In this document: positions 1,303-33,253 of the stretch, in pieces
How the letters are laid out: each line of letters begins with the position of its first letter
Position numbering within the stretch: the first letter of the stretch is position 1
Assembly: GCA_010405405.1 (NCBI GenBank)
Contig: MU004232.1
Span: forward strand, 1,569,481 to 1,633,480
DNA: 64,000 bases
Source of the DNA: Microthyrium microscopicum
Taxonomy: Eukaryota
Direction: 5' to 3'
Made by a program: the position numbers and the translations under genes
The notes under the pieces: generated by a model
Seen by the model: the letters and a program-made list of their open reading frames with translations, nothing else
Database searches by the model: none
Told to the model about the DNA's origin: nothing

Positions 1303-2861
1303 CTACGGATGCCATCTAAATCCAGGATGACGGTAATCCAAATCATCAATCTCCTTCTGACTCAGCCCACTCAACGTTCCCTCCGTATCCACGGATTCCC
1401 GCTTTCGATTATTGGCCGTCATCCACAACAGCAACAAAATACTGACGACAAAGATTGTACTCGATGTCGCCAAATTGAGTCCATTTCCAATCTTGTAGTC
1501 GGGCTTATCGAAGGGCAAGAAACTCCACGTTGCAATCAGGCCACCGATATTGCCAAACATGACATTCGTCCCAATCGCACTGCCCCGCGAAGTGTCTGAT
1601 ACAACATTCGCTGATACATGAGCATTACACAGTGCACCAAGACTGAATGCACTGGCAGCAATCAAGAACGTCGCGCCATATCGAGTGTTTGGATTCTTGG
1701 AGGCTAAGAACATGATATACCCGATCATAGTCAATGGTGCGCTAGCGATGAACCAGATTACTCGTTTATTCATGCGCCATGACATGAATGGAATGGCGAC
1801 TGTGAAAAAGGCTCCAATGATATATGGTGGTACGGTCTTGAGCTGCTGGAATACGGTGCTGTGTTGAGGCGCTGGATATATGGTTGCCACAATCGTTGGC
1901 GCAAAGAAAGCCAAGCCTTGGACAGTAACGTTATTGAGCAGAAAGATGAAGCTCGTTACTAGTGTGTTCGGGTTGAGTATGCCACGCATGATTTTCTTCA
2001 TGTCCATTTTGTCGAGGAGTTCTGTTTGGCCTACGCGCTCGCTCTTTACGCGAGCGATGGCTAGTGCCTTCTCCTTCTCGTTCAGCCAGCGGGCGGTCTC
2101 CGGGCGGTCGGTGAGTGTTAGGAACGCGATCAGGCCGAGCAGGATCGTTATGATGCCTTCGATGGCGAAGATCATGCGCCATTTGTGGAGGCCGCCGAAG
2201 TGGTCCAGCTTCAATATGGCACTGGCCAGTAAACCTCCAAAGGCTCCCGCGAGTGGCGCCATGACGATGTATAGACTGAGGCGAAATGCTAGTTCGCTTT
2301 TGCGGTACCAGCGACTGAGGTAGTACGCGATGCCTGGCATCATGCCCGCTTCGAAGATGCCGAGGACAAATCGCACGCCACAGATGCTGTGTATCGAATT
2401 ACAGAACGCCGTCCCCAACGAACTCACGCCAAACAGGAGTGTCGTGAGTGGAAGGAACCAGCCTGGGCCCATTGCTTTACAGGCCATGGTGGAGGGAATC
2501 TCGAAGAGAATGTAACTGATGTAGAAGACGCTGAGAACTTGATTATAGTCGTAGCCTTTTAGGTTAAGATCCTTTTCCAGGCCAGCTAGCCGGGCATTGC
2601 CAATATTCGCTCGGTCGATGAAGCAGAACAGGTATATTAGCGACACTGTCGGCACGATGAACAAGTCGATTTTGAGCCGCAGTTTTGATTCGGCAGCGGC
2701 GTCGAATTGGTAGACTTCACTGCCATTGCTAGAGGAGTTAGTTGGTACGTAATTCAATGCGGTTGGGCTGGTCATTACCTATCAGTTGCTATGTCGTTGT
2801 AGGCGACTCCGTCGAGTTCGGCCTTCTCCAAGACACCATCATGATTCTTTTCGTCCCGCAT
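1303..2861 (-). CDS. MFS transporter, allantoate permease/ACS family (intron 2729-2778)
   Basis: Motifs LKIDLFIVP, FIDRANIGNARLAGLEKDL, EAGMMPG and YLSRWYRKSELAFR; multiple TM segments; upstream exon MRDEKNHDG... splices in frame. Confidence 0.92.
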
Positions 2862-4360
2862 GGTGAGCGATATGATAGAGCTGAGGTCGACAAATCGATA
2901 CTTCCTAATTGTATAGTAGTAGTATTGCACCCCAGCGTCGCAATATAACAGCTATTCGCGGCTCAAAAAACCTCTTCTGTGCTTATGACGCTGACAGGAC
3001 ACAGTTCAATATGCTGTCATTGCCGACAAATATATTAATTAACTGTCTCCTTTCGTCCACCACCACAAGTCGCACGCCCCCAGGCACAGTACAAGAGCTG
3101 CAAGATTTCGTGTAATATCTCGGAAGCCATCCGAGCCCAGCGAATATGATGAGCCCTGAGAATTTCACGAGCTTAGTTCCAATCACCGTACCGTCCGACG
3201 GCTCCTTTCTCGGCGTTGTCCAATCATTCCATGGGACTTGGTGATTCCTGGTCGCCATGTGGATGTCAACCAAGGTCAAGTTGCGGGGTTCGCCTTAAGC
3301 CAAGACACGATAGCTTCACGCGTGCCAGACATTGTGTTGCATCAGGGGCTTGCGGAAGCATGCCGAGAGATGCAGTCGTGCGGGGAGAACTTTTGATGCG
3401 TGTCACTGCCTCAGACATGCGCGAGCGTCCGCTGCTCTCAAGTGCTAGTGACGAGTTGGGATATGGCACCGAAAGCGGTAGGAGTCCAGACTTTGCATCT
3501 CGTGGATTTTTGACCACAAAGGGAAACCAAGCAAGGTGGTAGAGAGAGAGTTGGGACCAGATTTGCCTGCCAAATTGAATAGGCGTTGAAGGTTACTTTG
3601 AGTCAGTCGCGATCTGATGGTGCAACCACAAATTCGATAGAAGTACCGGTATCTCAAACTGTATGTCGTGTCCTTCGTTTCTTCGCCTTTGTGGTAACAG
3701 ATTGCAAAACGCCAGTTGTGTACTCCATGTTAAAACGTGAAATGCACACCAATTTCAAACTTGAATAAAAATTGATACCTCGTTCCCATTACCTATCATT
3801 TCGGTAGTAGTTTACCCCAGATATCATCTCGGGACGAAATCAGATATGTCCCACGAACCATGTGGGGAAAGTGGAGATCAATTCCACGATGTTCTCGATA
3901 TATTTGCTTTTTTAGTTCAGATAAACTCGAGTCTTCAGCTCCGAATGTTATCATTCCATGCTTACGATAGGTGGATTTCAAAGTAGTTCTTGAAATCTTA
4001 GAGGTCACATTTATGGAGCATCTAATGAGGTCAAAAAGCCACAATCTTCTAAATTCTCCTAGATTTCTTGACTCTATATAGTATGAATTGTACGATTAAA
4101 AACACAAGTTCTTATAACAATTTGAAGTCGCAGAATCACAACTGAATGCGGAGCTCAGCGATAAGCTTATCTAATGTGGCGCAACTTGCATTGAATTCAA
4201 AAGGTATCAGATCATGATAACAATTCATAAGTACCTGCTACCACTACCAGTATATCAAGCTTTCGAGAAGCGAGAATCGAGATGTCAAAAACTCAAAACT
4301 CTAGCTGATTGAATACTTCTTAACATCACACTCACTGATCAAAGCCAAACGACTTCCACA

Positions 4361-4771
4361 ATGAAGATCCCGTCCCTTTTAACAACATCAATGTCCATGC
4401 TGCTGCTGGCCCTTCCTCATACTACCTCCAGCCTTATCAATACCGATTACGATATCAATGCCAACCAACACCCAATAATCCTCAACTCAATTGAACCCAC
4501 TGGCGCTCCAGCACCCCACTCAACACTGGGAACTTCAACATCGTCTTCAGCGACGTGCGATTTTGCTCCATATCCTACAGGCTGTGGAGTCGGAGATGTG
4601 ATGCCATGCCCGTTCAACTGCACGATGTTCTACCTGTGCACGTCTTGGGGCCCGTTAATGCAGTCTTGTCCCAATGGAACTCTGTTTGATCTTGGGGAAT
4701 CGAAATGTGTGCTGAAGAATCAAACTGCTTGTACTGGGTGTTGTATGACGACGGACTGTGATGGGAAGTAG
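4361..4771 (+). CDS. Small secreted Cys-rich protein with a CBM14 (peritrophin-A) chitin-binding domain, Avr4-like
   Basis: Signal-peptide-like N-terminus, Ser/Thr linker, then PFNCTMFYLC-x9-CPNGTLFD-x5-C-x7-C matching the CBM14 pattern; 11 Cys. Confidence 0.8.
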   Translation: MKIPSLLTTSMSMLLLALPHTTSSLINTDYDINANQHPIILNSIEPTGAPAPHSTLGTSTSSSATCDFAPYPTGCGVGDVMPCPFNCTMFYLCTSWGPLMQSCPNGTLFDLGESKCVLKNQTACTGCCMTTDCDGK

Positions 4772-5089
4772 GGGGTCGAATTCTTCTGGGAATGAGAGAG
4801 AAGAGGAGGAGTTGAGTTTAGATTTGGATTAGCAGAGCATCCAGGGCCATTGACGAAGTATGGCACTTCCGTATACTCTGGGAGAAGGCGACGATCTGAG
4901 AGCTGAGCCTCGAATGTGCAATGGTTGTAAATACCTGGTTGGTAATTTTGTGATTGTATCAGGATTGACTTACGATCGTCTATTGCTGTCTCATGTCTAG
5001 GGAAAGACGAGGGCGATATCAACCCGTCCATATCGAACTTTTAATACTGGGGTATAATGATACACATGACGCGTAAATCGTGATACTCT

Positions 5090-6084
5090 TCAGTCCTCCT
5101 CGCTGAATTTCAACAAGGCGGTCTCCTTCAACGCCTCTTCTAAGACGCCTCTCGACGCCAGCGCTGCTGACACCGCTCCATCCATCAACTTCTCTGACGT
5201 CTCACTAGACGACCCTCCTCTTAGCCAGAGCAGCGTGACTTCGTCCTTGGAAGCTACATACGCAACTACGCAAGCAGCTACGATGTTCTCATGCTCAGTC
5301 GGATTGGGATCAAGCACCACCTCTCCACCCACTCCATCATCCCTTTTTCCGTCGTCATCTCCATTGCCTAGTGGTCTCGCTACTAAAGCTGCCACACCGC
5401 CGCTAACCAAGTCAATGCAATCAATCCCCGCATCAACCAACGCCGCGCTGGCAGCCGTCACACACCCCGCCAACACCCCAAACAATCCCCATCCACCCAC
5501 ACTTGCCGCTCCACCGAGCGGCTCTTCCGCCCACCACCGATCTTCTTCGCCTTCAAGAATAGTGACACAGACGTCCACGCCAGTCTTTGGATACCGCTCG
5601 CCAATAATGACGCCCCTCAGGGCGGTCTCAAGCTGCGTACTAAGATCCTTCTCCGTGGGATCTCGCAAGTAGCCTCGCCGATGCCGTGTAGCAAACGGCG
5701 TGAATTTGACATAACACGAGAGCGCGAGATGTGGTGAATAGGCCGCTGAGCGGGCGAGTGGACGGGGTCCGTGGACAGCGACAGAGAGTTTGAGGGCGGA
5801 CGAGGATGGGAGGAGGAAGGTGGGTGAGTGGTGCGGCGATTCGAGTTCGAGGTACGCGGATCCCGAAGCCGGCGGCGTTATACCGGTCTTCAAATCTATT
5901 TGCTATTAGTCTCGAGGGTCGACCGAAACATGAGGGAGTCGCGCATACAGATTTTGCGTAGTTCGTCTGGTTTGCGGGTGCGCGTGGGACGAGTGGGCTT
6001 GTTAGGCGCGGATTTGATCATGCAGGAGTAGAGGAGGGGCTTGGAACCGCCTGGTGGCCCATTGTTTCGGCGACGGTCTGCCAT
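5090..6084 (-). CDS. MTR3: Exosome complex component Mtr3-like, RNase PH family (intron 5896-5948)
   Basis: MADRRRNNGPPG start; RKPDELRKI/YLKTGITPPASGSAYLE, VHGPRPL, VKFTPFA, YPKTGVDV and AASAALVDAGIDC motifs. Confidence 0.88.
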
Positions 6085-22316: not shown

Positions 22317-24417
22317 CTATGTCTTCCTTCCCTGGCTTTTCATCTTGTTCAACATAGCCGGATCAATCTTAATACCCTTCGGTGGAGGTGGCGGAGCATT
22401 CTTCTGCTTCATCTGAGCCAGAATGGCTGGATTCACTGTAACAGTCTTGGGTGCCGATGGTGTTGGCTTCGTAGCCTTCATCTGCGACAGAACCTTCGGA
22501 TCTATCTTAATGCCTTTCTTTGTGGTCGGAGCAGGAGTGGCCTTCTTGGCTTGCATAGGTGCACTATTTGTAGGTTTCAAGATCGACTTTGGTGTCCTCG
22601 GATTTGGCACGATGGGTTTGGACCTTGGTATTGGTAAGTCCGGGTCATCGCCAGATCTTGAGACCGAGGAACCTGGATGCACTGTGGTTTTCAGCGAGTA
22701 CTGTCTCCGATGGGTCGGTGGAATTGAAGGAATTGGTGGAACTGGCGGGACTTTGTTTACTGGAGTCTTTCCCTTCATCGCTGGTGCACTGGCAGCAGCA
22801 CTCGCCGGGCCTTTCTTCTTGCCAACTATTCCAGATTTCGCACGAGCTGCAGGTTGCGATTGGACCGACTTAGCTTTCTTTAGAGGCGATGCTAGGTTAG
22901 GAGGTGGTTGAGGAGGTAAGTTTGGCGGTGCTAGTTGACCAGACATGGCGAGTGGTACAGAATTAAGATATTTCTGAATGAGTTCCATCTGAGCACTTTC
23001 GGGCGTGAGTTTACTGATCTCGTTCATCGAAGCCAGGTTCGGAAAGTCCTTCTCCTGCGCCTTTTGTAGCTCTTGACGCTGTCCTTTGGTAGTCTTGTCT
23101 TTTGCCATGCCTAGAGCTCCTTTTCCTTTTTCTCCAGCTTGGGTGATCAACTTCATCAAGTCGTCGGAACTTGATGCTCCATTGGCGAGCGCCAACATCG
23201 CCATTACAGAAGTGACAGGAGCAAATATGGAGAGAAATTCTTCGAGACTGTTGGATTTGATTTGAGTCTCGATGGATTTTGCTGGTTGAGCAATCAACTG
23301 TTTTCGTCCGGTTTTCTGCTGCTGTGACATCCAGCTAACATCGTCTGGGAAGCGATTAAATCGCGTGAAGTGCTCGAGAAGGTAATCTTTTTCTCTCCAG
23401 CGGTTACGCAGCCACACGTCGAATGCTTGGTCATCATCTATTGGGATGGCTGATATCTTGAATCGACGAAAGTGCATGTTCACTGACTTTGGTGGCCTTC
23501 CTTCAAACATGGAGCTTCGAAGGGTGAAGACATCTTGACCAAACTGCCCAGGAGGAATACCTTCATACCCAATTGTGCAGTCATACAGCCATTCTGTCGT
23601 CTCGTGGAGATTTTGAAGAGTGAATTGTAGACCGCGGCTTCGTGGTAGCAATTGATGCTTCATATCTTGGACACCAGTTCTTTCAGCCCATTCTGCGCTT
23701 TTCGCTCGAGTACCTGTGGCCAGATTCGTTCCTTCAGGAAAGATGAGGAGCCACATGGGATCATCAGGTTGATTGAGGCCTTGCAAATGTTCCCGAAATT
23801 GCTTTTGGTCCGTTTCCCACTTTCGCGACAGAAAGATAAAATTATAGAACTGTGCTCCCCAGCCAATGATGGGAACGTTCTTCAAAGATTCTTTGAGAAT
23901 GATGTAGATATAACCATGCATATTATTGGTGTATGCCACCCACCAAAGGTATAGCCAGTCAGTGTAGAGTTGGTGATTCGCCATCATTACAAGCCTCTTC
24001 GGAAACTTGCAGTTCAAAGTCCCATCTTTCTTAAGGAACAATTGCTTTGGTATACTCTTGTCTCCACTGACTCTAACTATTGTAGGTGACCACCATTGTG
24101 TCATTGTAGTGATGAGGACGCCGAAAGACTGCTTTGTATATGCCATATATGTTTGGTAGAACTTGGGATCGATGGCTTTCAGAGGGGCTCCGAGGAATTG
24201 AGATGCGCTTATGCTAGTCTACAATCAGCATTTGAATTCATATTTTGGAATCGAAGGGTACCTACGCCAAAATTCCGGAAAGAAATGTTGAGCCAGCAGT
24301 GAAAGCTCTCTCAACCTGGCCAGTCTTTCCATGCTGTTTTGGCCCAACGTCCGACGCAGGTGTTCTCGTTGTGAGACCAGCTCCAAAGTCTAGTAATGGA
24401 TTTGGCGCCATCTTCAT
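22317..24417 (-). CDS. Lysophospholipid acyltransferase (PlsC family, Cst26/LCLAT-like) with long basic Pro-rich C-terminal tail (intron 24214-24265)
   Basis: NHQLYTDW (HX4D), FIFLSRKW, FPEGT, LLPR, YDCTIGY and WREKD motifs. Confidence 0.9.
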
Positions 24418-24673
24418 GAAGTTGTATATGTTTTGAGGGACAAGTACTGTAAAGCTACATGCTGGAAAAGAGGTTCGTTTTGCCTTCTTAGGGTCCTCGA
24501 TGCTCAAGTAAAGTGGTCAATGTATGATCAACACTGCAGTGATTATTCGATGTAGTACAATTATAGCACTGAAGAGGCCTCACTGGACGATTGTACTATG
24601 ACAGGTGGCGTGGAATAACCTGTTCAGCCTTTTCCAAACACCCTTGTTACACCAACGCCATATCCAATTTGTA

Positions 24674-24729
24674 GGATGCAGGATTTAAGGCAATCTGCAC
24701 GGGCCTTTTGTGTAAAAATACTATACCTT
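24674..24729 (+). repeat. Left terminal inverted repeat
   Basis: ggatgcaggatttaaggcaatctgcacgggccttttgtgtaaaaatactatacctt matches the reverse complement of 32363-32418 with 4 mismatches, all transitions. Confidence 0.95.
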
Positions 24730-24853
24730 AACCTATACTGCTATTTAGATATTTATATGTAATTCTTAACTATTCCTTTATTTATATAAATTATATCTTT
24801 ATTGCGTCAAAATTAATTTCCTATACTTAATCTCTATTATAATTTCTAAAAAA

Positions 24854-26760
24854 ATGCTTCTAAAAGGTACTTATAGTTAGCCTAAATAAGATTATATAAA
24901 TACTACTATTATTAATCTTAAGGTAGATTAACTACTAATACTTATTCTAAATTCTTATAGTAAAAAGAAGACTAATACTACTATAGTTATAATATTAGTA
25001 AAGAGTAGACTACTACTAGAATTTATATTAAGATATTTTAGATATAAATTTATATAGTCTTAGTAAGTAGTAGTACTTTATAGTATACTTATAAAGATAT
25101 ATAATCCTAGTATTAATATATTTACTACTAGATATACTATTAATAACTAGGAAGTAGAAGATATTATTTAGCTATATTAAGTAAGTATTAGTATTAAGAA
25201 GCTAGGTAAGCTAGTAAGTAAAGAAAAGAAGGCTATAACTATTTCTATTAGTATTAAGAACGTAGTTAATAATAATAATAATATTAACTAAGATAATAAT
25301 ATTAATAAAAATATAGGATTTATTATTATAGGAAAGGGTTTACTAAATAGGGTACTATTATTAGTAAAGACTATAAAGGAGAAGTAAGCTTATTAATATA
25401 CTTAAGAATTAGCTAAGCTTTAAGAGTAGCTTTAAGTTACTATTATAATAATAGTAATAGTAGTAATAAATAACGTTACTATTATATCTATACTAGTAGT
25501 TATAAAGAAGGTAGTATTAGTTAAGAATAAAGCTACTAGAACTACTTAAGATATAGTTACTAGCTTAGAGAATAGTAAAATTAAAGAGGATAAAGTTAAG
25601 TAGCTAAGTAATAATAAGCTAGCTAAGAATAAAAGTAATACTATTATTAGTAATAATATAAATAATAATCTATTCTATTATAGTAATAACTTTCTAGTAT
25701 ATAAGGTTAGTATTAAGATAAGAATATTTACTTAAAGTAGTTTAGTATTCTTTAAGAAGATAATACTATTAATAGAGAGGAAGAATTTTTATATTAACGT
25801 CCTTAATAATAAGCTTTATAATATAGATAAATATACTAAGAACTACTAATATACTATTTTAGCTATTAATATTAATTAAAAGTTTTTTTATAATTATTAT
25901 ACTAAAACCTATAGCTATATAGAAGTAATTATATATACTTAATAAAATTTATAAGTTAAAGCTATAGATTACTACTTTTAGAGTAACTTTAAGAGTAGTA
26001 ACTTTTATATAGTTACTATTATTACTAGATTTAATCTAACTAACGTTAAGAATATTATTACTCTAGCCTTAGAGCTCTTACTAAAGGGTTTAGAAATATA
26101 TATAAATTTACTAACTTACTATTTAAATACTATTACTAATTAATATAAGAATTATAGGCTTATTTATACTATAAAGAGATCTATTAAAGAGTAGATATCT
26201 AGAAGGTAGTTATATAATACTAACTATCTTAACTAAGGTAGATTATACTAAAAGGATTCTAAAACTAGTACTTATTATAATATTATTAATACTTAATATT
26301 AGTAATAAGCTTTTATAATAAATATAGGTAAAGCTATAGAAGTTAATACTTCTCTATATTTAGTTATTTTTTAAATAAGAACTTAGGACATAGTTAGTAC
26401 TAAGCTTACTTTTAGAGGTACTTAATTAACTATTTATAATATCTTAAGTAACGTATCTTAGGCTTAGTAAGAATTATAAGAATCCTTAGAAACTTAGTAA
26501 CTTTAGGACTAATAAAATAGGATTACTACTTAAGTTAATTATTAGGCTAAATAAGCTTAGGCTACTTAGAATACTACTAAGCTTTATAAAGTAGTATTAA
26601 ACTAGTAAATAGACTATATAAAACATAATTACTAAAAGGATAATTAATAAGAATAAGATATTACTACTTATTAAATAGAGAAAGAAGAGGCTAAGAAAGA
26701 GGCTAGAGAGTTATAATAAAAATAGCGTAAGCTATAAAAGATAATATTAGTATCTTAAAT
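24854..26760 (+). pseudogene. RIP-mutated cargo ORF A of the transposon, with a probable Cys/His domain
   Basis: ATG at 24854; purine-rich coding-like strand; back-mutation of RIP transitions gives MPPKG..GRPKR at the start and W-x-C-x3-C-x-N-x4-CW-x-DP-x4-HY near 26205-26290 (inferred). Confidence 0.5.
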
Positions 26761-28599
26761 ACGTTCTATTATATCTTCTTCTATTTAACCTTTAATTTAA
26801 CCTTTTTTAGTATAGTAATAATTTTAATTACTTTATACTATACTAAATACTAAGCTTTAGTAAGTATTTTAATCTTATTTTTTATTACTAGCTTTATATT
26901 ATAGTTAGCTTTTATTTCCTTTTCTTAGTTATAAGTATTATATTATTATTTAGTATAGTACTAACTTAGAATTATATAGTTATAAACTCTTTATCTCTTC
27001 TTACTTTTTAACTATTATTAAATATAGGTTATATTTCTTCTTCTTCTTTTATAATTATATTAACTACTTTAGCTCTTTCTTCTCTATAATCTTTATTCTA
27101 AAGTAGTAGATTACTAAGTTATTTATTTATAAGTAGCACTAATAAATAACCTACTAGCTTAATTAATCTTAGATATACTAATATTAAACTTACTAATAAG
27201 TTTTTTTAGTAAAAGATTTATATTAAAAAGGCCTATATTATTAGTTAGAAAAGGTACTACTATATAATTAGGTCTTATAGGTAAATATTAATAAATATAT
27301 AAGATAGTATAGTATAAATAATAGAAATTATAAAGCTATATATAAAATATAATATATCTAAGTAAATTATTAAGTTATTTAATTTATTAATTTCTTAGTA
27401 CTATATATAAGTTAGAGAATAGTATTTTAGTTATAAGATAATCTATATTTATAATAACTTAGAAATCTATAGGCTAATATAAAGATATAATTAGGTAAGT
27501 AATATAAAGGTTTAAATTATTACTAATACGTTATTACGTTTAAATTTAATAGATATAGGTTCTTTTCTACTTAAAAATAATAAAAGAAATTATAGGTTTA
27601 TATCTATAATTTTTAGATCTTATTTTTATATGCTAGTAAAAAAAATTATACTATATTTTAGAGATTTTTAGATCTTTTTAACTATTATTACTATTTTTTA
27701 ACTATAATAGATATTATCTTTTTATTTTTTGTTAGTGCTTTAGATAGTAGCTTTTAACTAGCTTACCTTTATAGTAATTAAAAATATTTAGTTTTAATAG
27801 AATAATAGCTTAGTAACGTTTGTAATAGAAAATTACGCTAATCTCTACCTCTTTATAAATTCTTATAGTAATAAGAATTACTCCTAAAATTTAGTAATTA
27901 TCTAAACTTACTCTAAAAATATATATATACTAATATTATTAGATTTATCTTTATTTATTAATATCTTAATATATTTAAATACTATTACTATTAATACCTA
28001 TTTATAGCTAGATATAATCTATCTACTCTTCCTTATACTACTAGCGTTTATTTACTTTATTATTATATAAGTAAATCTCTTTACTAATAGTTCTACTATA
28101 ATTTAACTCTATCTCTTACTATTAGTAGCTTAATAATCTCTATACTAATACCTATTTATAGACTAACTTAGCCCTTTTATAATCTCTCTTTTCTAATACT
28201 TAAGTATTTATAAGTCTAGCTATAGTATATTAGGTATTTATTAAATACTTCCTTAATGCTAAGTAGTATCTAGTTTATTTTTATAATTTTATTAGTAACT
28301 TCTTTACTTCTTTCTTAATATTAAAGTAATAGCCTAATTAGTATTAGGTATTAGTACTTTATTATTACTAATTAAATATTTCTCTAGTATTTAGTATAAA
28401 TATAGACTATCTATAAATAAGATCTTCTTAATATAGTAAAGTTTAGTATTAAAGGAGTATAAAATATACTTATTACTTACTATTCTTTAATTCTTCTTTA
28501 TCTTCTTTATTTAATATTAAACTTTAGTACTATTAATAGCTAATATTATTACTTTATTACTAGTATTAGTATAGCTTTACTAATTCTATATAATACTAT

Positions 28600-28890
28600 T
28601 AAAACTTAGGTTAACTTATTCTTAGTATATATTTCTATTCTATTTACTTTTTTTTTAAATTAACTTACCTTTTAGTATACGTTCTTATTTTATCTACTTC
28701 TTCTTTAGGTTAACTTACTTTTTAGTATATATTTTTATTTTATCTACTTCTTTTTTAGGTTAACTCTCTCTTCTAACTTTACTAATTTGCTATTTTAAAG
28801 GAATACTATAAGAGATTAGGCTTTACTAGCTTGCTATTCTAAAGGAATATTATAAGAGGTTAAGCTCTATTAGCTTACTATTCTAAAAGG
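28600..28890. repeat. Two adjacent tandem arrays inside the transposon (~50 bp units about x3; ~43 bp units about x2.5)
   Basis: ggttaacttac.ttttagtata..tt.ttattttatctacttctt.ttta recurs at ~28610-28765, and ttgctatt.taaaggaata.tataagag.tta.gct.ta.tagc recurs at ~28787-28890. Confidence 0.8.
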
Positions 28891-30979
28891 GATACTAAAT
28901 AAGCTAAAACTTTACTACTACTAGATTACTACTATCTAAAGGTAGTAAAAAGATTCCTAAAACTTTCTCTTTACTAATATATGCCTCTACTATATTAAAA
29001 AATACTATTCTCTATATAGGATTCTAATATCTATAACTTTACTTCTATATCTCTTTTATATTATAAAAGTATATAAAAATAAATACTCTAGTTTACTAGC
29101 CTTAATAATATTATTAAGAAAGTTAAGATTTTATGCCTCTTAGCTCTTTTATTTCTAATAAAGTATTAAAGGTTATAAAGACTTTATCCCTTCTAGTATT
29201 TTATCTTTATATTATCTTTATAAATTATAGGTTAAGATACTCTTTAGTATATATTTCCTTAATATTATTAAAGCTATTAAGACTTTATAATATTATATTA
29301 AAAGAAAATTAAAAGAACTTAGGCTATACTAGCTAGTAGTTTTTATTTATACTTACTATATATATATATAAAAAAGGACTACTAGCTAGTATAGAATAGT
29401 TATATAATATTACCTTTATTAGTAACTATCTTTAATATTATTTAAGTTTATATTATTATTATAACTAGTATTACTACTTTATTTTCTATATATACTTTTA
29501 ATATAAGCTTTTCTACTTATTATCTTTCTCTACTAACTACTAACTAGATTATAGTTTACTTAGATTATTACTTTACTACTTAATTCTTAACTTAGTAATA
29601 GGCTTTAGCCTTAAGTAATTATATTCTTTACTAGTTATATTTTATAGTAATTTACTTTCTTATTAATAATTAGGTAGTACTATAAAAATTTATAAAGTAT
29701 TATTAATTTTCTCTTCTTTTTATTTCTTTTATAAACTACTTTATATAATTAAATCTTTTATATTTAAGTACTTTATATACTCTAAGTACTTTATATATTT
29801 TATACTTTTACTAAACCTTATTAAATTATCTTCTCTTACTAATTCTTATTATAATAGTTTAGCTACTAATTAATACTCTACTTATAGGCTTTTTAGCCTT
29901 TAAAGCTTACTATAAGTAGGTAACCTATAATATAGTTCTTAGCTTTAAAGATTAGGGCTTTATTCTTAATATTCTTAGACTACTAAAAGGTAGTATTTAA
30001 TCTTCTAAGTCCTATATAAAAGGCTTTATATTTAGTACTATATATATAGTATAAACTAGTAGACTAACTATTATTACTATTAATATTACTAATCTAATTA
30101 TTAATTATATAATTAAATAGATTATAATTAATACTAATATAAGTTTATACTCTTAATTTACTATTCTTAGCTAATAAATATAGGATTTATAGGTTCTATG
30201 TCTAATTAACTATAAATCTTATTTAAGTTATCTTAGTAGTTACTATATACCTAGTAAATATAGTATTAATTTATATCTTATTACTCTAAATAAGAGTAAT
30301 ATCTTCTTTAGTAAGTATTTCTTAAATAAGAACTTTATTACTAGTCCTAGTATCTAATAATTCTCTTTTAAAGCTATTATCCTTTATAGTTAAGGCGACT
30401 TAAACTATAGATATATAAGTCTTAATAAATAATATAATGCTTACTAGAATCTTTACTACTTTATTTCTTAGTATTATACTTAGTAATAGTAAGATTTTTA
30501 TAGATATATTAGTTATTCTAACTTTTAGGATAATATATACTTAAACTATATTCTATATAGTAATATCTTAACTTATAATAAGTATATATAAAATAATAAT
30601 ATATTTATTTTACTAAACTTTTTTATAGTATAGAAACTAAGCAAAATAATTTTTTCTATTATTAAGAATAACCTCTTAGGCCTATTATAGTTTTAGAAGT
30701 ATTAGATAGATACTAAGGGGTTAATATTATAGATTTTAAAGTCCTATAGATTCTTATTATTATTTTAATAGTTTTTATTTATATAATTATATTCTTGTAA
30801 TAAAATTTAATATTAGAATAGTTAGAATAAGAATAAACTAAAAATTAGGATCTAGATAATATAATAGCTTATTTTTAATTTATATTATAATAATAGGATA
30901 TCTAATATACTACTTTTAATACTAATTCTAACTTAAATATTAGTAATATAAGATATATTAAATTTTAATATTTTAACTT

Positions 30980-32200
30980 TAATATTCTTTCTAATCTATA
31001 GTACCTAATATCTAAATCTAACCTTTTTTATATTGCTATATAAAATTATAAAATCTATATACTTCTATACTTTTATAATATATACTACTAGCTATATATT
31101 AAAACTATCTTTTAATAAAGTAATTATATTTACTTACTCTAATAGTATACTTTAAGAATTTACTAAAGTTAGTAAACTTACTATGCTTTACTATTTAATT
31201 CCTCTTTATTTAGGCCTTTAATATACTAAACGTAAGCTTAATAGGATTAAAATTAGGTAAATATAGTAGTAGATATTAAATAATATAGCTAGTATCTTTT
31301 AATAATCTTTTAATATTTAAATTTATATAAATTAAAATATTATTAAGGACTATAACTAGTATTTAATTACTTTACTTAGTAAAGTGCTTTAGTATTATAG
31401 GTATAAGTTTAGTCTTAATCTATTTATAAAACTATTTCTTATTCTAATATCTTAATTTAAAACTAGTATAAGGAAAATATTTTTCTAGTATTATAGTAAT
31501 AATAATAGACTAAGTTTTTTCTTAAGTTAGGCTTTAGATATACTATAATAGTTCTCTAATTAAACTATATACTTTATTATACTAACTAGTTTTTTTATTA
31601 AAGATAGATTTATTAAGGAATACTAGTTTATTTAATTTAAATTAGCTTATAGACTAGTAATATAACTAGCGTAGTTAATTACTCTAAGTATATAATATTT
31701 AGATAAGCTTTTTATAAGTTTACTTATACTATACTAGTATATAAGATATTATAAACTATAAGATATTCTTCTTAATCTCTTATTATAGCTAATACTTTAT
31801 CTTTTACTATAATATTTAGCTAAAGCTTAATATATACTAAAGTAGAGACTTCTTATCTTTAGTAGTAAGTTACTAAGAGTTACTATAAGATAGAAATTAT
31901 AGAGAGTATATAGATCTATACTTATTAAGGTTAGATTATATTTTATTAACTATTTTATAAGAATATTTTATAGAATTAGTAATAGCTAAAGAAGTTTAAT
32001 CTAGGCTACTATATTACTCTAGCTTATTATACTATATCTTAGTTAAAGGGCATTTTCTAGACTAGTACTTTATTATTTATTATTTTCTAGTAGCTAATAT
32101 TAATTAATATATATATTAATTAAGTCTTAAAAAGGATACTAGCTTAGGATTACTTATAATTATATTAGAAGCTACTTAATCTAATTTAGGATTAGATATA
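30980..32200 (-). pseudogene. RIP-mutated Tc1/IS630-family DD34E transposase; ends approximate
   Basis: One minus-strand frame reads FLNKSIFNKKTS* (inferred FLDESIFNEKTGW; D at 31614-12), IVLNN (inferred IVLDN; D at 31344-42) and LLLYLPNFNPIKLTFSILKA*IKR (inferred LPPYSPDFNPIE..FS.LKAWIKR; E at 31239-37). There are 34 codons between the second D and the E. Confidence 0.9.
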
Positions 32201-32362
32201 GTTAAGCTTATTATAATATCTATATAGATAAATCTAGGAAAATTACTACGCTAGAAGTAATAAAATATATAAAAATACGTAATTTATACGTAATAGAGTA
32301 ATTAAAATGCATAGATATGATAGGGTAAGATAATATGTAGAAATAACTAAATATTGAGTGTG

Positions 32363-32418
32363 AAGATGTAGTATTTTTGCACAAAAGGCCCGTGCAGATC
32401 GCCTTAAATCCTGCATCC
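32363..32418 (-). repeat. Right terminal inverted repeat
   Basis: aagatgtagtatttttgcacaaaaggcccgtgcagatcgccttaaatcctgcatcc, the inverted copy of 24674-24729. Confidence 0.95.
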
Positions 32419-32642
32419 TACAAATCAAGAACCTGTTATCAACCCTGGCCGATTTGACGTCATGAAATGCATCGTTGATCCTCTGCTCGTGTGGACGTGA
32501 ACTACTTCTCATCTCTCGCGTATTAGTTCTGCCAAATCTAAATCAATATTCTACTTCAGCAAAGACTTCTCCGTGGCCAAAAAATCCCTCATCTAACCAC
32601 TATTCCCGAACTCACATCACCACATCCACACCAAACAAAAAC

Positions 32643-33253
32643 ATGCCTGGCCCAGCAGTCCAGCAACGACCCAGACCTGGAACTTCTGTCGTCTCTAGAG
32701 GTGGTCGAACAGCCGTAAGCACCGTCTCGAAGCGAGGAGGTCCCAACGGACTTTCAAGAACTGCTGCTGCCGCAAAGAAGACACCACCAGTTCCACAGCA
32801 AGCCAACGGCGTATCTCCTTTTGAGATCATGGCAGGGCGAATTGCAAACAGAGTGGCCGACATGGCAGAGAATATCACCTTTTCCGAGAAACCACCGTAA
32901 GTTTACCCTTTCTCTGTCGTGATGCTGTAAGCTGCTTAATGCTGACAATTAAAAGACCAAAACAAGTTGAATTCGAAACACAGCAGAATGGCCGCAAAAA
33001 GGTTCCTCGCAAGCTCGAAATCCGTCTCCCCAACGCCAATGCCAATGGCGTCAAGTTCTCCGCACCATTCCTCGACAATCTGCTAGGCAAGATGTTGAGC
33101 TTGCAGAATCGCATGCTCATGACCGGCTCAGACCTCGCTGCCAGTGAAGCAGATGACAGCACCAAGCGAGATCAATTCGAGCAGAGCGCTGAGCTCTCAA
33201 GGATAATTGCACTAATCTGTGCAGAAAAGGCACGGCAAGGTGTGGAGACATGA
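32643..33253 (+). CDS. Hypothetical protein with basic low-complexity N-terminus (intron ~32897-32956)
   Basis: ATG at 32643; a GTAAGT..GCTGAC..AAG intron joins ORFs 32475-32900 and 32939-33253. Confidence 0.65.

Follow-up and report, generated by a model that had tools for sequence, protein, structure and literature searches.

In a 64,000-nucleotide window of the Microthyrium microscopicum genome (contig MU004232.1 of assembly GCA_010405405.1, positions 1,569,481 to 1,633,480), the segment 24669-32423 is a dead copy of an unusually long, multi-gene fungal cut-and-paste transposon, 7,755 bp in length, running TTG...CAA and saturated by repeat-induced point mutation (RIP). The window is fungal DNA of ~48% GC with a single AT-rich block at 24.7-32.4 kb; inside the element the GC content is 17-21% versus 42-56% in other 1-kb windows, and CpA and TpG are nearly gone from the block, which is the mark of RIP. 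We consider it probable that the element is a RIP-killed member of the group IS630-Tc1-mariner (ITm), in which a DD34E transposase and a partner gene form the backbone, a passenger segment lies between them, insertion occurs at AT, and miniature inverted-repeat transposable elements, or MITEs, are moved in trans. What is new here is the AT target, together with the size and a passenger module common to the families; the two-gene layout of fungal Tc1 elements is already known.

The inverted arms of the element (24667-24732 and 32360-32425) comprise 66 nt matching at 92%, with a 55-bp core of the terminal inverted repeat (TIR) carrying 2 mismatches and weaker similarity out to about 146 nt. Both the TIR pair ~7.7 kb apart and the RIP over the element had been proposed by a model that read the letters alone (the original prediction), and both were borne out, as was the lack of a second TIR pair around the transposase, since self-comparison of the element returned only its ends, one hairpin and one direct repeat. 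The limits had been set too far inward, at 24674 and 32418, where a TA lies inside the TIR; the true ends are 5 bases further out, on which all four ends of the two copies of this family (family A) agree, and two sister families, B and C, have no TA at the corresponding position. The ends are as follows:

24667..24668, no strand: left target-site duplication AT (AT at both ends of the paired elements; reading frame restored at the C14 site)
24669..24723, plus strand: left TIR, 55-bp core starting TTG (arm comparison)
32369..32423, minus strand: right TIR (arm comparison)
32424..32425, no strand: right target-site duplication AT (flank comparison of copies)

The genome holds 12 paired elements with such ends, i.e. 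two of family A, four of family B, one of family C and five of MITE type. The second family-A copy, on contig C1, is 89% identical over the whole length, with 787 transitions versus 43 transversions; the four family-B copies span 8.7-9.6 kb, the family-C copy 9.5 kb once a nested long terminal repeat (LTR) element is set aside, both with related ends, and of the MITE-type elements with the same ends four are about 530 bp long and one is swollen to 31 kb by nested repeats. All seven large copies (A, B and C) are heavily mutated, and they represent three lineages rather than seven independent cases; a RIP-reversed consensus from 2-5 copies was still of 25-29% GC and stop-filled. The search with the TIR and the interior returned other full-length copies holding the same interior, not a transposase only, as expected of the oversized element originally predicted. 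As side observations, an isolated family-B end of 34 bp overlaps the final codons of an open frame of the host (G000:C6:1613191-1613224), possibly a footprint or an exapted end; the 31-kb MITE (G000:C4:542197-573040) and the family-C copy (G000:C5:1810661-1827890) contain the same LTR element with ~218-bp LTRs; a palindromic element of ~650 bp, 82% self-complementary, lies just beyond the latter (G000:C5:1828299-1828946); and an AT-rich, TIR-bounded 3.3-kb element on C9 (L047:5240-8493, G000:C9) has unrelated ends.

AT flanks both ends of all 12 paired elements, not the TA of the ITm group, and the dinucleotides outside AT match in 2 of the 12, close to chance. A short-chain dehydrogenase gene is interrupted at its start by the C14 copy, whose right flank begins at position 6 of the dehydrogenase Pfam model. 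The start codon and the glycine-rich motif of that gene are in the same frame only if the empty site held a single AT; zero or two copies of AT put the start out of frame. Because one AT restores the interrupted frame, AT is the duplicated dinucleotide and TTG...CAA are the ends of the element; a target-site duplication of AT, not TA, is thus shown at this one site. This AT duplication, the most unusual trait of the element, had escaped the original prediction. The same genome has two other DD34E-type elements with RIP mutations, 3.8 and 3.3 kb long (L170:1746-5530 and L172:2186-5503), whose TIRs are unrelated and which have TA at or beside their ends.

The transposase occupies the right end of the element:

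31024..32013, minus strand: DD34E transposase relic (DDE_3 match; triad positions about 31614, 31344 and 31239)

The DDE_3 match of the relic (E 5.4e-5) is below the Pfam gathering score, 34 residues separate the second D from the E position, and the triad positions now read N, N and K, as expected from RIP; the match and the spacing bear out the DD34E transposase relic predicted at this end. The transposase also shows a codon-position bias. An intact relative (P0005) combines a helix-turn-helix (HTH) with DDE_3, and P0005 and P0025 score above the IS630 cut-off. The element thereby has the ITm features of a DD(34)E transposase with an N-terminal HTH, the HTH being taken from the intact relative, and of TIRs. 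A profile search with the transposase collected 347 proteins, including those of Paraphaeosphaeria, Lipomyces, Talaromyces and Rasamsonia. A tree was computed from 42 DDE domains, with L117 dropped for want of a match long enough and with no named reference transposases included. In it the A, B and C relics fell into one clade with P0005, P0008, P0012, P0021 and P0025, with L094 adjacent; they are nested within sequences of fungal and metagenomic origin (support values 0.97 and 0.94), apart from the TACAG-ended elements. The mutual grouping of the three relics may be an artefact of shared RIP bias. No relatives were found when viral contigs were scanned with the transposase and partner alignments and genome contigs with P0005. 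Of the 14 matches to the intact relative in the genome, 13 contained stops, and the remaining one was intact and confined to the N-terminal part. The latter is an intact 364-codon frame without RIP (G000:C1:3427346-3428440; L169:2346-3440, plus strand), whose N-terminal part matches the HTH region of the transposase (35%); it has no DDE domain and short repeats at its end, and is possibly a domesticated DNA-binding domain.

The strongest coding signal in the element comes from the opposite end, from open reading frame (ORF) A, which begins at ATG 24854:

24854..26863, plus strand: ORF A exon 1, partner gene relic (coding score, transversion phase, RIP-aware profile; exon end inferred)
26864..26969, plus strand: candidate ORF A intron with GT, CTAAC branch site and AG (donor position inferred)
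26970..27400, plus strand: ORF A exon 2, a Ser/Pro-rich linker and a C-terminal helical domain (C-terminal profile; end approximate)

Exon 1 encodes a basic and acidic N-terminal part, a Cys/His motif at about 26213-26396 and a coiled coil, and an inward-reading gene with the same motif lies at the same end in families B and C. Between the two family-A copies, 9 of 11 transversions in ORF A fall at codon position 3 (p=0.0014), and the indels are of 3, 3 and 3 nt. A RIP-aware codon profile of intact relatives ranked the end gene first of six frames in all seven large copies (25.6-39.5 bits; 31.8 and 39.5 in the family-A copies), versus a null with a mean of 17.1 and a maximum of 24.3 bits over 66 control frames. 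The intron is probable: its branch site and acceptor are present in both family-A copies, and it joins exon 1 to the frame with the C-terminal domain, for which a six-sequence profile scored 29.1 bits in the C1 copy and 19.0 in the window copy (null maximum 18.3, 36 frames), with no match above the null in the five B and C copies. As the C-terminal domain lies in another frame behind this candidate intron, ORF A would extend to about 27400 and cover the short minus-strand ORF. The plus-strand coding from ATG 24854 was thus correctly foreseen, its end at ~26760 was not, and the short charged minus-strand ORF placed at ~26770-27200 is antisense to the linker, intron and second exon of ORF A. Judged by sequence comparison, ORF A is a true partner gene of about 24854-27400 that shares homology with the B and C end genes and with intact proteins of 700 aa.

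An intact counterpart stands in the metagenomic locus L094, where a 723-aa partner faces a transposase of the same clade convergently, the two stops lying 50 bp apart; this partner has seven homologs, one from Glutinoglossum americanum. The same partner family stands beside the L099 transposase of another tree branch (probability 81%, E 1.2e-5). Pfam searches on eight intact partners listed six weak families (best E 0.003), judged chance, and no Osmo_CC match, NCBIfam returned nothing for partner P0122, and a catalytic motif was not found in the partner. ESM Atlas searches with an intact partner gave hypothetical fungal clusters (0.89-0.91) and, as a lead only, a SAM-domain cluster (0.76). In its AlphaFold model (mean pLDDT 61.6, pTM 0.28), a domain of mixed alpha/beta structure is accompanied by the Cys/His motif, a helix of 90 residues and a small helical domain; with this model Foldseek gave no match at E <= 0.001, only weak beta-grasp/PB1-like rows, and VIA-align returned coiled coils only, and a single-domain model was poor (pLDDT 42.8, best Z 4.7). 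Separately, five TIR-bounded metagenome elements of 2.8-3.9 kb (L095:5303-9186, L099:338-3092, L100:9382-12446, L114:3860-6665 and L166:6633-9498) combine a DD34E-type transposase match with convergent partner frames, some of them split as if by introns.

Between the two genes lies a segment that is shared with the sister families in another arrangement:

27650..30990, no strand: middle passenger segment, ~3.3 kb (homology to the B/C middle, order and orientation shuffled; limits approximate)
28606..28897, no strand: tandem repeats with units of 50 nt (x 3.2) and 44 nt (x 2.7), neither length divisible by three (repeat analysis)
28815..29100, no strand: 287-bp block with 8 transversions between A and B and no frame preference (A/B comparison)
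29320..29392, no strand: long hairpin (z = -7.1, 0/200 shuffles; alignment of the seven large copies)
30160..30900, plus strand: ORF D relic with a probable Cys cluster at about 30430-30580 (frame test; limits approximate)

Between B and C the middle is conserved at about 90% identity and hardly any of the differences are transversions, whereas the two families are far apart at their ends and show 13-35% transversions in transposase and end gene; the shared part is sharply bounded (B about 1580-5880). Against family B, the 287-bp block is far better conserved than the transposase, which has 96 transversions in 592. The hairpin is common to all seven large copies and stands directly behind the transposase gene in B and C. 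Genome matches to the middle were confined to the seven large copies, a lower bound from 9 and 13 scored candidates; none of these candidates was a solo copy, and the edges of the middle showed neither terminal repeats nor a duplication.

Transversions in 29685-30691 showed no phase (89/85/71, p=0.33), and neither did those of the end gene, a real gene, in the B/C comparison; this measure was therefore set aside and a codon-pair frame test was used. By this test the stretch 28175-29290 looks non-coding, its six frames scoring alike (116-133 bits) and its indels between families not being multiples of three; in 29420-30160 one sense/antisense frame pair is slightly preferred (46-51 and 43-44 versus 25-41 bits); and in 30160-30990 one plus frame reaches 67-77 bits versus 27-51 in the other five, as clear as the transposase control. 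The minus-strand, repeat-containing ORF predicted at ~27900-30060 is for the most part non-coding, being unsupported where it would cross the 50-nt and 44-nt repeats and the hairpin, with no frame signal in 28175-29290; the plus-strand ORF predicted at ~30198-30770 corresponds to a real relic, in the frame of 30160 rather than that of ATG 30198.

Rfam on two copies gave one chance match and Pfam on the ORF D relic no match, and tblastn matches of ORF D, run without composition correction, were not counted. The tyrosine pattern of ORF D suggested to us a RIP-erased cysteine cluster presumably of the DUF3716 type, and the tests of this family disagreed. With a DUF3716 (PF12511) profile including flanks, built from four genome members, the ORF D frame came top in all seven copies (22-27 bits; null maximum 20.5, 48 frames), and to this is opposed a core-only profile, with which ORF D was top in two of the seven at <=21 bits (null maximum 34.3, 90 frames). 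On these scores it is evenly balanced whether ORF D is DUF3716-like. The DUF3716 matches of the genome lie at G000:C6:1243530-1243709 and 1248050-1248244, C14:115053-115178 and C2:938404-938541; two of the four are above the Pfam cut-off, and the two on C6 are 4.3 kb apart. The minus strand of the AT-rich part of L042 (G000:C15:384000-393999) reached 34.3 bits with the core profile, far above other controls, and may be another RIP-mutated DUF3716 gene.

The following mechanism is proposed, on a layout that is itself shown. The backbone comprises the DD34E transposase and a partner gene of ~800 codons, each reading inward from its own TIR, and between their 3′ ends a passenger of 3.3-4.3 kb, homologous in the three families, carries tandem repeats, the hairpin and at least one further gene of uncertain identity. 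Following the chemistry of the superfamily, the transposase would cut at the TTG...CAA ends and insert at AT with a 2-base stagger, and the ~530-bp MITEs with the same ends would be mobilised in trans by the same transposase. The partner is most likely, with a chance of about one half, a non-catalytic, zinc-binding coiled-coil helper favouring the element in the nucleus, e.g. by anti-silencing or transpososome assembly. From the near-identical B/C middle on divergent backbones we infer that template switching in the course of gap repair may have passed the passenger from one backbone to another.

The main rival takes the middle for an independent insertion, so that the backbone would be an ordinary two-gene element of ~4.5 kb, into which a non-autonomous element had inserted separately in each family. 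The sharp limits of the shared B/C middle on divergent backbones, the intact relative L094 that has no middle, and the hairpin and repeats at one edge are in its favour, but no terminal repeats or duplication mark the edges, matches are confined to the seven large copies, and the middle keeps one position throughout the three families while its interior is shuffled in A, as would be expected of a long-resident segment rather than of a new insertion; we hold this rival to be unlikely. Nor was the interior seen to resolve into independent nested elements with termini or solo copies of their own. Even less likely is the layout first proposed, in which four accessory or cargo genes on alternating strands would fill the 6 kb: ORF A and the ORF D relic are real and 29420-30160 has its slight frame-pair preference, against which stand the antisense position of 26770-27200, the like scores of all six frames and the indels in 28175-29290, and the repeat units of 50 and 44 nt. 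The original prediction of a single oversized multi-gene DD34E transposon therefore stands in that the copies and sister families share the partner gene and the middle, and fails in that only two of its four extra ORFs hold. Intact relatives support the multi-ORF layout in part, since L094 has the two genes; it has no middle, and the nearest relatives by TIR are of 1.4-1.6 kb.

A further alternative concerns the ends: AT could be part of the TIR, and the element make no duplication or a variable 2-bp one. The dinucleotides just outside AT match in both family-A copies (CA/CA and GG/GG), and the relative L089 has TT and AA at the AT positions, as this would allow; the near-chance match over the 12 sites, on which a variable duplication was rejected, and the dehydrogenase start, out of frame with no AT or two, make it improbable. 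Several results weigh against the multi-gene, AT-inserting transposon that we prefer. The AT duplication was read from one interrupted gene (the C14 copy), and an empty site for the window copy was not found in the sequencing runs, four of them likely of the source sample and two of another organism with a small share. Three metagenomic relatives whose TIRs are similar measure 1.4-1.6 kb and are flanked by AT/AT (L090), TA/TA (L092) or TT/AA (L089), so that neither size nor the AT target is fixed in the wider clade, and an intact 8-9-kb element was found nowhere. For ORF A, phmmer with X at stops against 1.84 billion representative proteins gave 0 hits, Pfam on the relic and seven end-ORF pieces no match, and plain profile comparison to the intact family was weak (best E 0.14; another, probability 16%), so the link to the intact family rests on the custom RIP-aware scoring; the direct frame test of ORF A versus B and C did not single out the true frame.

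Canonical members of the Tc1 family have a single ORF and are about 1.3-2.5 kb long, whereas the element here is of 7.76 kb with at least three coding relics. It shares with the ITm group an HTH plus DD34E transposase, TIRs, a 2-bp duplication and MITE derivatives, and differs in the AT duplication, the size of 7.8-9.5 kb, the partner gene and the passenger segment; TA is given as the shared ITm target in the accessible text of PMC7325037. A comparable layout is that of the two-ORF Tc1/mariner element 'Osmo-CC' of Pyrenophora tritici-repentis, with a second, coiled-coil ORF between the TIRs that was read as a captured host gene (PMC3538342, accessible text). It is alike by description, our partner gene being convergent with a Cys/His motif and a coiled coil, and unlike in that the same text mentions no passenger segment. 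Dici1 and Dici2 of Diutina catenulata, as described in the available part of PMC13469147, are fungal DD34E ITm elements that likewise have three coding sequences, in 4.0-4.2 kb, with a TA duplication, CAGT ends, a central transposase and a transposase relic as the third coding sequence; here the duplication is AT and the transposase terminal. With two- and three-ORF fungal ITm elements in print, and with short MITEs bounded by these TIRs as well, the family is only in part the undescribed one suggested as possible by the original prediction; its AT target, size and passenger are new.

The REP9/Styx transposon of Zymoseptoria is a 7.9-kb TIR element of four genes with an IS3EU-related transposase and a 6-bp duplication (PMC8232023 and PMC10853768, in part), two of its accessory genes having DUF3716 (PMC8232023, in part). 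It resembles our element as a long TIR transposon with accessory genes, DUF3716 for ORF D being tentative, and differs in that the duplication here is of 2 bp and the transposase is DDE_3 rather than rve. The TBE and Tec elements of ciliates are DD34E elements with three ORFs, one of TBE encoding a zinc-finger protein (PMC7325037, accessible text); they are likened by gene layout as there described, and differ in telomere-bearing or 700-bp TIRs and in their restriction to ciliates. The Epichloe festucae MITEs EFT-3m/Toru, EFT-27m and EFT-28m are fungal TIR elements with an AT duplication, of unknown superfamily and without a parent found, and, compared by description only, their ends are CTCC or CCC, not TTG (PMC3227409, accessible text). 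Literature searches found no description of an AT-targeting DD34E or Tc1-type family, though most subscription papers, Repbase and supplements were outside their scope and could hold one; the accessible portions of a Verticillium study (PMC3441728), a fungal survey (PMC5751038), a truffle study (PMC3864998) and a study of Starship hitchhiking (PMC13004909) describe no such element. A lichen-type metagenome contig (L091:1323-10896) has a 139-bp inverted repeat pair (86%) around an intact related transposase; its interior frames, named by eye as a sulfate transporter, P450 pieces and an oxidoreductase, make it a possible cargo-carrying relative.

TA targeting has been treated as a hallmark of the ITm group. 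A natural AT-duplicating DD34E lineage with intact relatives offers a direct route to the residues by which the target is chosen, and could assist in classifying those AT-duplicating MITEs of fungi whose superfamily is unknown. The partner gene is met repeatedly among fungal DD34E lineages, and its intact members are testable for function; a swapped middle would mean that cut-and-paste elements exchange multi-kilobase modules. The window copy itself is dead and has no known effect on its host. More tentatively, the element might represent an undescribed fungal DD34E lineage whose target has changed from TA to AT, with a dedicated helper gene and an exchangeable module of ~4 kb with a DUF3716-type gene as in REP9/Styx. 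Were this so, one kit of accessory genes would be common to unrelated superfamilies of fungal transposons, and the lineage would be a candidate parent type for the orphan AT-duplicating fungal MITEs.

The insertion point in the window is a short gap between two host genes, the left one an acyltransferase gene running leftward with its start codon, read from the sequence, at 24411, and the right one an unnamed gene with its start at 32643.

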